Assembly: GCA_965263355.1 (NCBI GenBank)
Contig: CBDHHL010000027.1
Coordinates: 1-26,006 of the forward strand
Origin: Leptolyngbyaceae cyanobacterium
Lineage (GTDB): Bacteria; Cyanobacteriota; Cyanobacteriia; Phormidesmidales; Phormidesmidaceae
Direction: 5' to 3'
DNA length: 26,006 bases
The position numbers and the translations under genes are program-made. Below, piece after piece: positions 9,705-18,181 of this stretch. Position 1 is the first letter of the stretch. The number at the start of each line of letters is the position of its first letter. The notes under the pieces are model-generated. The model was not told the DNA's origin. It ran no database searches and saw only the letters and a list, made by a program, of their open reading frames with translations.

Positions 9705-10544
9705 ATGACCATAAACACTTCCAACGACAATAACGATTCCAATATCGTTCGCAGCTTTAATCAAGTTGATATCTGGCAAAAGCGAGAAGATGGCTATATC
9801 AATCTCAATCAGATGGCTAATGCTACCGGCAAGCGAATTGATCATTGGCTAAAAACCGAGCCCACGAAAGAATTGTTTGATGAGTTTTTAAGACATCAAA
9901 AGTGTCCGTACTTATCTACCCCCTCAGAGGGGGAGTTTTCAGAAAATGCTAGTGATAGCAAGGATATTGAGCCACCTATTAGAACCATCCAAGGCCGTAA
10001 TGGTGGGACATGGGCACACCCTGATATTGCTATTCAATTTGCAATGTGGTGCAGCCCAGCATTTGCCCTGCAAGTTAGCAAATGGGTTCGTACTTATATG
10101 ACTGAAGGCCGATTGGAGGCTGAAGAGTCAATCCCAGCTCATGAACTTAAGTTCATTAAGATGGTTGAGCAAATCGAAGATGTGTTTCCAAAGGACTGCG
10201 CCCAATCCCGAGACCTTAAGCACCGAGCTGCACTAATTTGTTATCCAGAGTATGCATGCGCTCAATTGATTGCAGAAGATAATCGTAAAAAGTACCTTAT
10301 CAAACGAAAGCGTGAATTACAGGCGCGCAGTGTTGAGAACTGGTTGGCTAGCTTAGCTTTGATTAGAAACCAACAAAAACCAATTTCTAAATGGTATCAA
10401 AGCTATAAAGAATGGTGCTTGCAAGAATTCGACATGGTTCCATTGGCCATGTACAAGTGGAAAGCTTATTTGATTGATAATGAATTCGCTCAAGTCCTGA
10501 AAAAAACAGGTGCAGGTATCCCACTAGAAATCTTTCCTGTATAA
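9705..10544 (+). CDS. KilA-N domain protein fused to a primase-type C-terminal winged-helix domain
   Basis: EDGYINLNQMANATGKRIDHWL...GGTWAHPDIAIQFAMWCSPAFALQVSKWV is KilA-N. The last ~70 aa align with the C-terminus of 4772..7021. Confidence 0.9.
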   Translation: MTINTSNDNNDSNIVRSFNQVDIWQKREDGYINLNQMANATGKRIDHWLKTEPTKELFDEFLRHQKCPYLSTPSEGEFSENASDSKDIEPPIRTIQGRNGGTWAHPDIAIQFAMWCSPAFALQVSKWVRTYMTEGRLEAEESIPAHELKFIKMVEQIEDVFPKDCAQSRDLKHRAALICYPEYACAQLIAEDNRKKYLIKRKRELQARSVENWLASLALIRNQQKPISKWYQSYKEWCLQEFDMVPLAMYKWKAYLIDNEFAQVLKKTGAGIPLEIFPV

Positions 10545-10546
10545 CC

Positions 10547-10906
10547 ATGCCTCACCAATTAGAACTACCCTTAACCCGTCGTTCTAAAACCAAATGCACT
10601 GCTTCGCCAAATGCCATCATCCCAGGCTTAGACGCTAGCTTATGCCGCTGTGATTATTGTCTAACTCGTTCTGATGGCATTTGGTGGGTAGATGTTGACC
10701 AACGGCTTGACTGCCTCAATAAGAAAAAGCATAAAATCCCTTACTTAATTGAGGTATACCGTCGCCAAGCTGTTGGTGTGGCCCACGACGACGATACAAA
10801 AGAAACAGAAGCTCAAAATGCGAAACGTAAGCACGCACAATGGGCCGGTCAAAAGTTCAAACAAACTAATAAATCATGTCAGCAACAACAATTACTAGAC
10901 CAGTAA
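10547..10906 (+). CDS. Hypothetical Cys-containing protein (119 aa)
   Basis: Tightly packed in the operon; C..CRCDYC may bind metal. Confidence 0.6.
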   Translation: MPHQLELPLTRRSKTKCTASPNAIIPGLDASLCRCDYCLTRSDGIWWVDVDQRLDCLNKKKHKIPYLIEVYRRQAVGVAHDDDTKETEAQNAKRKHAQWAGQKFKQTNKSCQQQQLLDQ

Positions 10907-13345: not shown

Positions 13346-13355
13346 TTTAACGGCC

Positions 13356-13709
13356 ATGAGAGCATCAACGCAATATAAACAAAGATTATCAGAGCTGCTA
13401 TCGAAAAAGATACTTAAAGCAGCTGGAATTGATGCAACGGTTCGAGACCTAAGCGATCGCTGCGATGGACTAGCAAGTCATCAAACAATTGCGGCTTGGC
13501 GTTCTGGCAATTATGTTAAGCAACTAGACGACTTTTCTTTTCAGGCATTAGAAAAGATTTTGGCCCATAGAGGGCTAAAGGCTCATGAAATTAGCTACTA
13601 TCTTGAGCATGGTGTTTGGCTAGAGAAAAAACAGTCCAAAAGGCTAGGCAGCCTTTGGCAGAAGCGAGAGCAGATTAATCAATCAATTCAACAGTTTGCG
13701 GCAATTTAG
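13356..13709 (+). CDS. Putative XRE-like HTH regulator
   Basis: TVRDLSDRCDGLASHQTIAAWRSG has HTH spacing. Confidence 0.55.
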   Translation: MRASTQYKQRLSELLSKKILKAAGIDATVRDLSDRCDGLASHQTIAAWRSGNYVKQLDDFSFQALEKILAHRGLKAHEISYYLEHGVWLEKKQSKRLGSLWQKREQINQSIQQFAAI

Positions 13710-13711
13710 TA

Positions 13712-13740
13712 TTGACAGATTTGGAAATAACATCCATAAT
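13712..13740 (+). promoter_or_regulatory. Strong sigma70-type promoter
   Basis: TTGACA-17 bp-CATAAT. Confidence 0.75.
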
Positions 13741-13769
13741 TGGAATTGAACACTTTCCAAAAATGGAAA

Positions 13770-13892
13770 ATGACTTTCACTAAGATAGGCATCGACTCCT
13801 GGTCTATTTATCTGCCAGGTGAAGTTTACCAGGGCTGCATAGAACTTAACTGGACCGTTACTAAAAACCTAGACAAATCCGTACAGATGTAG
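13770..13892 (+). pseudogene. Small ORF (40 aa), probably interrupted near 13855 by an IscB-type element
   Basis: MTFTKIGIDSWSIYLPGEVYQGCIELNW resembles the N-terminus of 14165..14506. The similarity ends where the omega-RNA locus begins. Confidence 0.4.
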
Positions 13893-14150
13893 TCAAACCT
13901 GCTTAGCAGGGAAGTAACGTGCAGAATCTTCAGAAATGACTGAAGTTGCGAAAGCAAGGGTTTAAGTATCCACGTTGAGAAAGTGACGCTTTAATGCGAC
14001 TCACCTGCGAATGACCGCCAGTTTGTAGCTCTGAGGACTTGAGATTAAACAGTATAGACGAACGGTTTATAAGCCTGTGTCTCTTGTCTATCAACCTTTC
14101 CCAACAGTTTCGAGGCAAACTTTACAGCAATGCTTGGGAGAAGATCCCAC
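13892..14150 (+). ncRNA. IscB-type omega-RNA (HEARO-like) scaffold, orphan
   Basis: Ordered hallmarks CACGTT, CACCTGCGAATG..GCCAGTTTGTAGCTCTG, TTAAACAG, AACA.TTTCGAGGCAAACTTTAC. Long-range stem GTTGAGAAAG (13974-83)/CTTTCCCAAC (14096-105). Stem CTGCGAA/TTTGTAG. The 5' boundary is uncertain (13855-13892). Confidence 0.75.
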
Positions 14151-14164
14151 AATTATTTAGCCTT

Positions 14165-14506
14165 ATGACCACCATAACATTTCGCCAAACTCACAGCACT
14201 CAATGGATTGTCCTGAACGAGGCAGAGAAACTGGGCCACATCGGATTCAATCTCACAGCTATGCGCTGGGAGTATTCGCCATATGGCCAGCCAGTTGCAG
14301 CAACAGGCTCCCTGGAGGATTGCAAAGCTGCAGCCATTGCCGAGAATAAACAGCATCCAAACTATCCGCTAAGACCTATTAACGGTTATCAGTCTGGGGA
14401 TATCGCTGAAGTCTTTATCGAGCCGTCAAAGCGTCGAAAACACAGCGGTTTATATGTTGGGAAACTCTCTGTTACTTGCCTAAAAACGGAAAATGAGCGT
14501 ACATGA
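14165..14506 (+). CDS. Chimeric ORF: small phage-like N-terminal domain plus IscB C-terminal fragment
   Basis: ATG sits where iscB would start. The C-terminal NGYQSGDIAEVFIEPSKRRKHSGLYVGKLSV matches the IscB GFQTGD...GTYVGRV segment. No PLMP, RuvC or HNH motifs. Confidence 0.6.
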   Translation: MTTITFRQTHSTQWIVLNEAEKLGHIGFNLTAMRWEYSPYGQPVAATGSLEDCKAAAIAENKQHPNYPLRPINGYQSGDIAEVFIEPSKRRKHSGLYVGKLSVTCLKTENERT

Positions 14507-14753
14507 TTGTCTTTCAGCGCTTGCTAACCCTGGCCGACTGGAGGTTATGCAAGTGCTGAAAAGAGAAAGCGTGCTCACTAGCGGCGAGGTTGCGATCGCG
14601 TTAGGGGTGCATCATCCTACGGCTTCTAGGCATTTGAAGCAGTTAGAAGCTGCGGGTCTTGTGACTGGTGTAAGACGGGCAAGTTTCGTTAATTACACCA
14701 GGAATGAACAGGGCATTAGGAAATTTATTGAAGAATTAAAAAAGGAATTGTAA
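14493..14753 (+). CDS. ArsR/SmtB-family HTH regulator
   Basis: LSALANPGRLEVMQVL...SGEVAIALGVHHPTASRHLKQLEAAGLV...RRASFVNY. Confidence 0.88.
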   Translation: MSVHDCLSALANPGRLEVMQVLKRESVLTSGEVAIALGVHHPTASRHLKQLEAAGLVTGVRRASFVNYTRNEQGIRKFIEELKKEL

Positions 14754-14766
14754 GCAATGTTTATAC

Positions 14767-15000
14767 TTAGCACGAAAAGAAAGACATTCAATGACCCCCA
14801 CCTTAAAGAGGATGGGGGAGTGCCAGGAGTAAGACTGGCGTAACTGCGAATAGGCCATTGAGCAAGATTGCGGTTAACACTTCCAAAGGCTTCTCTACTT
14901 TGGACTCCTGTAAGCCTTTTTACTGAGGCGTAGCTAACGGCTAGACATCTGCAATCTTGTGGCTTAAGAGACCTGTAGTAACTGAGATTATCTCTCAACC
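14767..15000 (+). ncRNA. IsrB omega-RNA with 5' flank-derived guide
   Basis: Structured leader between the left end and isrB (ACTTCCAAAGGCTTCTCTACTTTGGA hairpin; CAAGATTGC/GCAATCTTG long-range stem). The guide is expected from ~14767-14786. Confidence 0.75.
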
Positions 15001-16182
15001 AACTATGTTCAGAATTCCAACACTCAACCCAGACGGTTCACCAGCAATGCCCACTAAGCTCGCCAGAGCTAAAAAGTGGGTAGAGCAAGGTAAAGCAGTT
15101 TGGGTTAAGACCGACCTTCGGATCAAAGCTGTCAGGCTAGTATCCGAACCATCAGGTAGAGCTACCCAGCCAATAGCGGTCGGTATCGATCCGGGAAAAT
15201 TATTCTCCGGCGTAGCCTGTCAGTCTGCTAAAGCAACATTGTTCACAGCTCATCTACTCTTACCCTTCAAGCGGGCAAAAGATCGGATGGAGTCACGGGC
15301 AATGATGCGACGTGGCAGGCGTGGTAGGCGCATTAACCGTAGTTTGCCTTTTGAATTGCGGGCACATCGTCAAAAGCGGTTTGACAACCGTAAGCAAACA
15401 AAAGTGCCTCCCAGTATTCGGGCTAATCGCCAACTTGAACTTAGGGTAGTAACTGAGCTTTGCAAGCTATTCCCTGTTTCAAGAATCGTCTTTGAATACG
15501 TTAAAGCTCGAACTAAGAAAGGTTGCTCGTTCAGCCCGGTACAGGTTGGGCAAAAATGGGCCATCGCTCAATTGGAAAAGCTTGCACCTGTCCGCACTCT
15601 TTACGGGTGGCAGACTGCCACCATGAGAGATCATTTGGGCTTAGAAAAGTCTAAGAACAAAGCGGAGCAATCCCCCCAATCTCATGCCGTTGACGGCATA
15701 GCTTTAGCAGCCAGTGAGTTTGTGGAATATCGCAAATATCACAGCAATGACTCAAGAGGTGCTGACTGGTTTGGCTCGGTCAATATCACGTCAGCTCACT
15801 TTGTAGTCGTTCATCGGCCACCCGTAAGCCGTCGTCAACTCCATTTAATGGTGCCCGCTAAGGGTGGATTAAGGCGGAAGTATGGGGGCACTGTGACTCG
15901 TCACGGGTTTAGAAAAGGCGATTTGGTTATTGCTGAAAAGAAAGGCATCCAATCAATCGGTTGGGTGTCTGGGGATACAAAAAATAAGGTGTCGGTGTCT
16001 GATTTCAACTGGAAGCGAATCGCCCAATTTACCGCGTCTAAAGTCCAGCTTCTCTATCGTTCTACGGGGTTGCTGGTTAATTGCCCACAGAGATTGTCAG
16101 TCAGCAACGCATCGAGCGTAGCAGCCTGACTCTCCTTTCCTCCCCCACTTGAACGAAGATGGGGGTTTCACGGAGTTTTGTG
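14787..16182 (+). mobile_element. Non-autonomous IS200/IS605-superfamily element carrying isrB and omega-RNA
   Basis: Similar subterminal hairpins at both ends: CCCCCACCTTAAAGAGGATGGGGG (~14795) and CCCCCACTTGAACGAAGATGGGGG (16142). No tnpA. ATGA immediately 3' of the right end. Confidence 0.85.
15005..16129 (+). CDS. isrB: IsrB RNA-guided nickase (RRXRR/PLMP, split RuvC, no HNH)
   Basis: PDGSPAMPT (PLMP), VGIDPG (RuvC-I), RAMMRRGRRGRR bridge helix, IVFEYV (RuvC-II), SHAVDG (RuvC-III), GFRKGD. No HNH between RuvC-II and III; 374 aa. Confidence 0.9.
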   Translation: MFRIPTLNPDGSPAMPTKLARAKKWVEQGKAVWVKTDLRIKAVRLVSEPSGRATQPIAVGIDPGKLFSGVACQSAKATLFTAHLLLPFKRAKDRMESRAMMRRGRRGRRINRSLPFELRAHRQKRFDNRKQTKVPPSIRANRQLELRVVTELCKLFPVSRIVFEYVKARTKKGCSFSPVQVGQKWAIAQLEKLAPVRTLYGWQTATMRDHLGLEKSKNKAEQSPQSHAVDGIALAASEFVEYRKYHSNDSRGADWFGSVNITSAHFVVVHRPPVSRRQLHLMVPAKGGLRRKYGGTVTRHGFRKGDLVIAEKKGIQSIGWVSGDTKNKVSVSDFNWKRIAQFTASKVQLLYRSTGLLVNCPQRLSVSNASSVAA

Positions 16183-16332
16183 ATGAAAAATAAACCAATC
16201 AAACCCCCAACCGATGGCGTAGTAGCCCAACCTACAACTGCACATCAATCAGGCGAGTTGCTTGGACTCAGGGCTCAAATATATAGTCCGTTATTGCCTA
16301 ATGTTCAGCAATCTAACAATAAAAATGGCTGA
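16183..16332 (+). CDS. Small hypothetical protein (49 aa), not in ORF track
   Basis: MKNKPIKPPTDGVVAQ...NKNG; GGAG in the IS right end lies 7 nt upstream; its stop overlaps the next start. Confidence 0.45.
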   Translation: MKNKPIKPPTDGVVAQPTTAHQSGELLGLRAQIYSPLLPNVQQSNNKNG

Positions 16333-16516
16333 AGTTTTAAGCTCTGAAGAATGGCGACAATTTGTGATCAAAACGATCGCTACAGCTACAGGGCCAACGG
16401 CGCTAAACCTGGCAATCCGTCAGTATGCAGCCATAACAGGTATGCCGGTCAAAACTCAAAAACAACGTGAAATCGTTATTTCAAAAGCAATGGGAGAATA
16501 TCTTGAAAAATTGTGA
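16325..16516 (+). CDS. Hypothetical protein
   Basis: Probable start MAEVLSSEEW; coupled to neighbours. Confidence 0.55.
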   Translation: MAEVLSSEEWRQFVIKTIATATGPTALNLAIRQYAAITGMPVKTQKQREIVISKAMGEYLEKL

Positions 16517-16778
16517 TAGTCAACGGGTCATTCAGTGGCCTTTCAAGCATAAGGGACAAGACATTAATTTGTCTTTTGATACTGTTACAGGAGATGCATT
16601 TCTGCCGCGTGTTGGTTGGCTTAGTGTGGCGGCATTAAAGGCGCTCGGCTATGTGCAACAGTCGATCGCGAAGCCGTCAGGAAGTCATCGGAAAACATCA
16701 TTTGGGGACTCTAAAGCTCATGATGGAGGTTTTTATAAAACGCAGTTTAGACAAAGAAGGAATTCATGGAAATACTAA
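16467..16778 (+). CDS. Hypothetical protein (start uncertain)
   Basis: ORF track; fits the operon. Confidence 0.45.
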   Translation: MKSLFQKQWENILKNCDSQRVIQWPFKHKGQDINLSFDTVTGDAFLPRVGWLSVAALKALGYVQQSIAKPSGSHRKTSFGDSKAHDGGFYKTQFRQRRNSWKY

Positions 16779-17201: not shown

Positions 17202-17437
17202 ATACCGCAAAGGGGAGCGGACATTGAGGCGATAAAAAGCCGATTGAACCTGCGGGGCACCGCTCCCCTGAGGCTATCGGGACACCAAATCTGGCAGAGG
17301 TGGATAAATTAAAACGGCCAGTCGTCAGTGCGGTTACAACTGGGGTCAACAGCGTACGGCCCATACAAACCCGCTAGAAAACCCCGTGAGGCAGTCTGAG
17401 AGGACAATGGCCCTCACGGGGTTCTCTTTTGCTTTTT
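17202..17437 (+). ncRNA. Candidate structured small RNA (~230 nt)
   Basis: Bounded by the promoter and a terminator-like stem; GC-rich; 10-bp stem 17211-17220/17260-17269; no convincing ORF. Confidence 0.45.
17380..17437 (+). terminator. Terminator-like stem-loop
   Basis: AACCCCGTGAGG (17380-91)/CCTCACGGGGTT (17412-23) followed by CTCTTTTGCTTTTT. Confidence 0.6.
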
Positions 17438-17654: not shown

Positions 17655-17915
17655 ATGAAACTTATATTTTGTCCAAAATGCGAAGACATCAGAGCTTTGG
17701 CCTATGAACTTCGTTATTGCTCCTGTGCCAGCTCTTGGGGTTACTATCGACGCGATGGACTAAACGCTGTTATTGGTGGTAAGGCTATCCCGTTGGGGTT
17801 AAATAATCAAAGCTTCGTTAAGGCACTCAAAAATAGGCCAGCGCAAGGTCTAGGCCAACGGTTTGAAGCATTCGTTATTCCTGAAAATTGTCCTACATTG
17901 ATGGATGAAGGCTAA
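17655..17915 (+). CDS. Hypothetical zinc-ribbon-like phage protein
   Basis: CPKC...CSC. Confidence 0.65.
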   Translation: MKLIFCPKCEDIRALAYELRYCSCASSWGYYRRDGLNAVIGGKAIPLGLNNQSFVKALKNRPAQGLGQRFEAFVIPENCPTLMDEG

Positions 17916-17953
17916 AGCTCTACATTCAGCCATTCGATCTCGCGACTTGCAGC

Positions 17954-18181
17954 CTATTTATCTGAATTGGCTAACGGCAAATCTACCAGGTTCACCCAAT
18001 CACTTGGGTTAAAATCAGCATCTTCTGCCTTAATAAGGCGAATCATCAGCGAGCCACCCTGGGTCTCTAGCACCAAAGATAGACCGTTGCCCCCAAATAA
18101 TTCATCCAGCTCCCTTAGAAACGCTTTGAGCCATAGGTCTTGTATTTCTTGAGTGATTTGCTGCTTACTCATCTTTCCCAT
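17954..18181 (-). CDS. Hypothetical protein
   Basis: Last gene of a minus-strand operon. Confidence 0.55.
   Translation of the reverse strand: MGKMSKQQITQEIQDLWLKAFLRELDELFGGNGLSLVLETQGGSLMIRLIKAEDADFNPSDWVNLVDLPLANSDK

Follow-up and report, generated by a model that had tools for sequence, protein, structure and literature searches.

IscB is the small ancestor of Cas9. The scaffold of its omega-RNA, as defined by the HEARO family (RF02033) and by the part of the OgeuIscB report used here (PMC9640706), comprises a central stem, a pseudoknot hairpin with its partner, a nexus and a terminal hairpin; it lies upstream of the iscB start, and the Rfam model opens with a 5' guide-adaptor hairpin. 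Effector-less scaffolds also occur as stand-alone omega-RNAs, which act in trans and whose biological role is stated to be unknown in the sections of PMC10691335 cited here, and as PATE-like gene-less elements (PMC10055086, in part). ISC elements, with their IS200/IS605 ends, are non-autonomous, carry iscB antisense to the tnpB of elements that share their ends, and have Y1 hairpins and GT|GG, GT|RA or N|ATGA targets (PMC4810608). At the level of gene neighbours, the part of the Meers preprint drawn on here (PMC10055086) did not find iscB associated with a serine tnpA. Elements of the IS607 family encode a serine TnpA and TnpB; a GG core is needed, TGGG is preferred and the RNA end reads CGG, according to the parts of the sources used here (bioRxiv 2023.11.20.567912, PMC13565253).

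In the window (the whole stretch of DNA analysed, 26,006 nt), a segment starting at 13855 shares with HEARO RNAs all four scaffold parts and the position upstream of the iscB start. It differs from them in having a multi-branch domain built from an IS607-type end in place of the guide-adaptor hairpin, in scoring below the gathering threshold, and in having no nuclease gene after the RNA. With stand-alone omega-RNAs and PATE-like elements it has in common an effector-less scaffold and possible action in trans, but it includes part of a captured gene together with a remnant of iscB, and it lacks far-end repeats, so it is probably not mobile; no second copy was seen in the window. Its clade resembles ISC elements in being non-autonomous and in having iscB antisense to the tnpB of end-sharing elements, but its ends are CC-cored with short repeats. 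The IS607 family, exemplified by CboIStron (bioRxiv 2023.11.20.567912, in part), is like this clade in the GG core at both junctions, the GGG target on the tnpB strand, the right end ending in CGG and the short subterminal repeats, whereas its effector is TnpB and that of the window's clade is IscB, with no serine tnpA adjoining iscB at any locus examined. The segment is probably the remnant of a non-autonomous IscB transposon with IS607-type ends that has kept its RNA scaffold, is immobile and decaying, and would be transcribed only through a host promoter. Its features and those around it are the following.

13712 to 13740, plus strand: sigma-70-like promoter of the host operon, outside the element (TTGACA-17-CATAAT), common to the alternative allele
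13754 to 13769, no strand: operator-like 6-bp inverted repeat (6 of 6 pairs), of putative function
13770 to 13892, plus strand: ORF-A, a small host ORF, native to 13854 and cut by the element, with its stop at 13890 to 13892
13835 to 13854, plus strand: predicted guide in the flank just outside the element end, deduced from that end and from IscB biology (PMC10691335, in part)
13855 to 13890, plus strand: transposon end with CC core and subterminal motif, the reverse complement of an IS607 right end
13856 to 14149, plus strand: omega-RNA (HEARO) scaffold, from covariance-model match, alignments, pairings and covariation
13856 to 13862 with 13913 to 13919: 5' stem of the scaffold
13924 to 13926 with 14109 to 14111: nexus of the scaffold
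13974 to 13983 with 14096 to 14105: long stem of the scaffold
14005 to 14028: pseudoknot hairpin of the scaffold
14135 to 14149: terminal hairpin of the scaffold
14165 to 14365, plus strand: ORF-B, the 5' portion of a small gene of foreign origin, beginning where the iscB start codon would lie
14366 to 14468, plus strand: iscB 3' scrap of 34 codons, in frame with ORF-B, from protein and nucleotide identity to intact IscBs
14469 to 14480, plus strand: possibly the last 12 nt of the element's far end (a match to the clade's end motif), or host DNA
14481 to 14506, plus strand: tail of the interrupted host ORF, with a similar tail in the alternative allele; it supplies the stop of the chimera within the ArsR-like gene
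14493 to 14753, plus strand: ArsR-like HTH gene of the host operon (PF12840, E 1e-12; PF01022, E 1.7e-10), behind both alleles
14787 to 16129, plus strand: separate, independently polymorphic IsrB element, with its own RNA at 14787 to 14978 and its ORF at 15005 to 16129

Position 13855 is the exact end of an IscB transposon, and three comparisons fix it. A DNA search of 401 cyanobacterial genomes gave matches in three; in G266 an intact IscB element is present twice, and the flanks of the copies part right before the CC aligned to 13855; two closer relatives from metagenomes (L142 and L148) start at the same CC; and an alternative allele of the locus has its polymorphic junction at 13854/5. 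The scaffold thus begins at 13855/6, the transposon end, and not at 13892, a start considered in the preliminary description. In a FastTree phylogeny of 37 proteins, all 16 IscBs with this type of 5' end group in one clade (support 1.0; five loci yielded no protein). In G673 the motif of this end recurs 16 times (of 22 matches), where it forms the right end of TnpB elements that run the other way. Nine such TnpB-element loci were analysed whole; two have an intact gene for a MerR-HTH serine transposase and most of the others have its remains, and the transposase of L121 matches Resolvase at E 1.1e-18. By these signatures the TnpB loci that share the clade's end motif are assigned to IS607.

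The far ends are consistent with the same assignment. A motif downstream of iscB, whose end is CC with a third C after it, is found in 13 of 15 clade elements and in 0 of 20 other IscB loci, a comparison in which the motif was derived from part of the same set and L092 and L131 were too short; among held-out full-length elements it is found in 4 of 4 from the clade and 0 of 4 others. At one site a clean empty site is seen (L043 compared with G475), with a single CCC between both flanks. At all four orthologous sites of L020 and L039 the left flank is followed by CCC and the right flank is not contiguous; two more loci were too distant for this comparison and one was without a flank. The targets of the clade are CCC, unlike those of ISC and IS200/IS605 elements, and its ends differ from those of 20 ordinary IscB loci. 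The clade was likely moved by an enzyme other than that of other IscB elements; the ends it shares with L121 and L124 suggest that this was likely a serine TnpA acting in trans. We found no description of an IscB with IS607 ends in the literature searched, which included PMC9956272 and PMC10691335 and did not extend to Altae-Tran et al. 2021 and its supplements. In that literature the pairing of IscB with IS607-type ends is undescribed; the locus itself is a gutted member of a known element type.

In the window the GG (CC) core and the IS607 right-end motif are present at the RNA-side end. At the far end, a 12-nt tip matches at 14469 to 14480 (chance about 0.7% in 25 positions; the next base is T, not C) and the inner repeats are absent; the tip may be host DNA. 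No exact empty site for the window's element was seen in the runs. The flanks of the intact elements L020, L022 and L039 are not contiguous in relatives, which suggests inter-copy rearrangements or adjacent deletions. Two IscB elements (L199 and L202) have another type of 5' end, neither ordinary hairpin nor CC, and at L066 (G564:C45 from 58104) an IS607-type end motif is followed directly by a tandem array of repeats of about 100 nt.

The omega-RNA-like scaffold proposed in the preliminary description is borne out by the Rfam covariance model, which matches 13892 to 14125 with 64.2 bits (E 4.9e-11). This falls short of the gathering score of 83. Two intact, iscB-linked relatives score 68 bits and likewise miss it, so that the window's low score is normal for the clade; the shortfall reflects the clade's differing 5' domain. 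The pairings that had been noted are kept: 13974 to 13983 with 14096 to 14105 has 9 of 10 pairs, with one A-C mismatch, 14005 to 14011 with 14022 to 14028 has 7 of 7, and the loop GCC at 14017 to 14019 pairs with GGC at 14114 to 14116. Three hairpins described as extra are indeed present, at 13898 to 13910, 13928 to 13945 and 13946 to 13957; the first lies within the standard 5' domain of the clade and the other two in a region that varies across all relatives. The 10-nt stretches 13945 to 13954 and 13974 to 13983 differ by one base and each could pair 9 of 10 with 14096 to 14105, which may reflect an alternative fold or the origin of the GAAA hairpin.

The window keeps 3 of 3 nexus pairs, 6 of 6 in the 5' stem, 3 of 3 in the pseudoknot, 8 of 8 in the hairpin and 9 of 10 in the long stem. 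Of 18 sequences scored (L142, which offered no anchor, was left out), every one has a complete nexus, 14 have all 6 pairs of the 5' stem and 16 have all 3 of the pseudoknot, and compensatory changes occur; RNAalifold on 13 sequences found changes on both sides in 31 of 47 pairs. Consensus pairs are kept at 36 of 47 in the window and at 41 to 47 in 12 relatives, a gap that is partly misalignment, and there are real A-C and U-U mismatches in the window. At -2.34, its folding z-score is inside the span of -1.38 to -3.73 obtained for 11 relatives (the L142 and L148 rows were left out). An intact core of this kind is a point against decay. Because the element is young, the retained pairs are no proof of selection after the loss of the nuclease. 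In species genomes the RNA pattern gave four matches, of which L001 alone is a plausible RNA remnant (a 32-nt match, E 2.2e-6); it matches HEARO weakly.

The ORF in the iscB position consists of three parts. It most likely starts at ATG 14165, which aligns with the iscB ATG of L142 and L148, and encodes 113 aa (14165 to 14506). Its N-terminus is unrelated to IscB, as had been seen from the letters, and represents a genuine protein domain: about the first 65 residues fall into a family of 82- to 213-aa proteins, to which they are 40 to 54% identical over the matched part. The family as aligned comprises 11 of 17 matches, five long repeat-protein matches, three of which were inspected, having been set aside. 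ORF-B would be a small cyanobacterial mobile-element protein of which about 65 codons were captured. It was not found in the 401 cyanobacterial genomes in a search that had no positive control, and ORF-A and ORF-B were rejected as paralogues (E 9.8). AlphaFold2 predicts a small sheet and helix for residues 1 to 63 (pLDDT 80 to 90) and values below 50 for residues 67 to 113. The scrap is unfolded in this model, which is weak evidence in that no alignment supported the prediction there. Fold comparisons with ORF-B pointed to no named function: there was no PDB match at E 0.001, the best Z was 5.3, and the one resemblance, with E values from 0.004 upwards, is to small phage proteins that are mostly uncharacterised; the ESM Atlas returned nothing for P0027.

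The IscB C-terminal segment of the ORF is also real and, at 14366 to 14468, slightly longer than previously noted. At the protein level this scrap is 97% identical to P0043 and 91% to P0044, both intact IscBs that keep their RuvC and HNH motifs, and 93 of its 103 nt are identical to L173. The chimeric ORF has no Pfam match, and with a 34-aa C-terminal scrap it lacks the PLMP, RuvC, bridge helix and HNH of IscB. Both junctions of the chimera are in frame, for which the chance is 1 in 9, and this is a further point against decay. The overlap with the ArsR-like gene, also noted earlier, is 14 nt.

Close relatives of the locus were sought in viral contigs (with the ORF, the exonuclease, the RNA pattern and the ORF-B alignment), species genomes (exonuclease), JGI metagenomes (RNA pattern) and plasmids (RNA and iscB scrap), and none were found; blastn of 13350 to 16300 against plasmids and phages gave matches confined to the IsrB part. 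The arrangement of RNA, chimera and ArsR-like gene, whose conservation had been raised as a question, was found nowhere outside its own 90% cluster. The region is contained in three runs, from two samples of one study, from which the window itself may come. The alternative allele, present in all three, shares the promoter and ORF-A up to 13854, continues the ORF-A frame in other letters, and rejoins the window at 14494 after a tail that resembles the window from 14476 onward. It follows from this layout that the element interrupted ORF-A, which has lost its middle part; a search for longer homologues of it, a weak test, found none. Contig depths are 71/69/55 for the alternative allele and 177/143/109 for the cassette; such depths give no share of cells, and comparisons between them are hints.

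Among the 40 differences listed (of 45), none lies inside 13855 to 14493 save those of a low-depth ORF-B homologue; over the surrounding 11 kb, other lineages included, about 2 places per 100 nt are changed. The chimeric ORF has 3 cluster members on 9 contigs and the gene upstream 5 on 17, and one variant of the ORF carries T47I and S77F. In run X3 the cassette stands on two upstream haplotypes, and it occurs on backgrounds with and without the IsrB element (120/107/30). This uniformity on several backgrounds suggests a recent spread of the already gutted form; it is also a point against decay and, of all the observations, argues most for an RNA that is still active in trans. X3 record 20 stops at 14365, but this is a contig end and was rejected as junction evidence. 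Further polymorphic segments lie at 9816 to 10000, 10665 to 10855 and 16506 to 16755 (in or beside the KilA-N gene, the next small gene and a small ORF pair), which speaks for a mosaic replicon population.

One alternative is that an intact IscB from the same clade, present in the same cell, takes up the orphan RNA and with it cuts insertion-free sibling replicons, thereby driving the cassette through the population. The core pairings are kept and transcription from the host promoter would run through the guide. A further contig, present in all three runs, shares 13908 to 13928 and 14108 to 14159 and then enters an IscB start that agrees with P0044; its depth (185/127/100) is similar to that of the cassette, which makes it, too, a point against decay, but similar depth in runs of one study is no proof of the same cell, and the middle of its RNA does not align at 80%. 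Stand-alone omega-RNAs can act in this way, and TnpB drives elements through plasmid populations in the part of PMC11870625 cited here. The trans guide put forward in the preliminary description is thus possible as far as the RNA core and a clade IscB element in the same runs go, but no cleavable target was seen among the window, the viral matches and the alternative allele. The predicted guide has only one match within the window. An 18-nt degenerate pattern gave 7 partial matches in IMG/VR; with neither CC nor flank homology, these were rejected as targets and taken as chance. In the alternative allele guide position -5 is changed and the guide is not followed by CC; mismatches close to the TAM stop IscB from cutting, according to the part of PMC9640706 used here. 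One cassette-bearing haplotype differs at guide positions -2 and -5, differences that homing should have erased, and the flanks are not contiguous, so that no perfect empty site could be regenerated. On balance we consider trans guidance unlikely. The -5 mismatch and missing CC fit a finished drive and plain drift equally. It is rather improbable that a nuclease-less cassette from an IS607-ended clade with a predicted CCC TAM borrowed IscB and spread as a parasitic gene drive, leaving only resistant alleles behind; in that case it would have taken a captured phage-like gene domain with it through a natural population of cyanobacterial replicons. For trans guidance as such, a better model than the window is L127/L085 (G428:C1 near 3110800, on the minus strand), a full stand-alone omega-RNA of the clade whose genome has intact copies as well.

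A decaying IscB element, the first of the options in the preliminary description, fits best. The scrap is 97% identical to an intact IscB, so its origin is recent, the segment is polymorphic, and decay of the same kind is common in relatives: 5 of 20 RNA-bearing loci have only part of iscB. At L085 the RNA is full, iscB is missing and no far end appears over 900 nt, and L211 has an internal deletion. At L137, 140 nt of the RNA and an iscB 3' scrap remain; with half its RNA deleted, it was rejected as an intact stand-alone RNA. L137 (G585), L043 (G673) and L139 (G475) represent one orthologous site in three states, namely a 371-bp deletion derivative, the full 1632 bp and empty. A domesticated RNA, by contrast, is not borne out: the segment is polymorphic and recent and absent from the other collections searched, and a variant of the ORF changes two residues.

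The promoter reported upstream of the scaffold stands, with 11 of 12 consensus positions at 13712 to 13740; a promoter scan found 3 sites where shuffles gave 4.0 expected, and this one is notable for its quality alone. The perfect 6-bp inverted repeat 3' of it is a possible operator. A 117-aa gene at 13356 to 13709, which ends 3 nt before the promoter, has no Pfam match, looks HTH-like by eye and is 97 to 99% conserved over 5 cluster members. The replication module of the window (D5-type primase, Dda/RecD-like helicase, KilA-N, polymerase exonuclease domain and 5'-3' exonuclease) is followed by many small ORFs without known function, and assembled contigs of up to 165 kb carry proteins of this region. 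Comparison of 28 window proteins with PHROGs revealed no structural phage gene, so that the replicon may be either a phage or a plasmid. Its host is likely a cyanobacterium, judging from the named relatives of ORF-B (Adonisia turfae and another cyanobacterial MAG) and from the best plasmid match of the IsrB, in Acaryochloris. Between two genes at 17375 to 17428 there is a strong GC-rich hairpin with a weak Rfam F6 match (E 0.16), near which, at 17911 to 17967, the runs have variable ends.

The cassette might be kept as an expression unit, with the RNA as a structured leader, the iscB start driving the ORF-B domain, and translation coupled to that of the ArsR-like gene. The ATG stands at the iscB position, the whole conserved ORF-B domain is kept and folds (a natural relative, P0028, is little longer at 82 aa), and the 14-nt ArsR overlap is the same in the alternative allele. 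That allele, however, does without the cassette, the arrangement is confined to one cluster, the conserved C-terminal tail of the ORF-B family is lost, and one variant has two amino-acid changes. We therefore regard this reading as very unlikely.

The neighbouring IsrB element raises the further question of whether the RNA serves as a second guide for IsrB, or else as a decoy that titrates host IscB. There is a strong promoter upstream and IsrB lies 500 nt downstream, but IsrB, whose ORF has RRXRR without HNH, has its own RNA of the ordinary hairpin-ended type (a weak HEARO match, E 0.016), which makes it an unlikely partner for the orphan RNA. It also varies independently of the cassette (depth 177 vs 120, 109 vs 30), and no threat from host IscB to the replicon was shown. 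A decoy or second guide is highly improbable, and domestication and decoy readings alike have little support. The operon thus contains two unrelated OMEGA elements within 300 nt. The stretch 14787 to 16369 (IsrB and about 240 nt beyond) is polymorphic too, and in one alternative allele the letters that come after 14786 are ATGA, a kind of target reported for cyanobacterial ISC elements (PMC4810608).

A history of the decaying remnant may be sketched as follows. On a phage- or plasmid-like replicon of a cyanobacterium, an intact IscB element would have inserted at CC within a small ORF. A serine transposase in trans probably placed it there, and the element probably spread among sibling replicons while its nuclease was active. 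Illegitimate recombination would then have replaced most of iscB by the 5' part of an unrelated small gene, and a deletion would have taken the end of iscB, the far end's inner repeats and the central part of the host ORF. For IS607, an adjacent deletion was not found in the literature searched, and the mechanism proposed for this one is our own. What remains would be one open frame from the old iscB start to the stop overlapping the ArsR-like gene, and an open frame through the remnant would spare that gene from polarity. The remnant itself appears to have no present function.

The ends of the clade predict that its elements are mobilised in trans by a serine TnpA. They also predict a C-rich TAM (CCC), which would broaden the targeting range of compact IscB editors. 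A population with an orphan RNA, a mismatched alternative allele and a related IscB element would offer a natural setting in which to test trans-driven spread.
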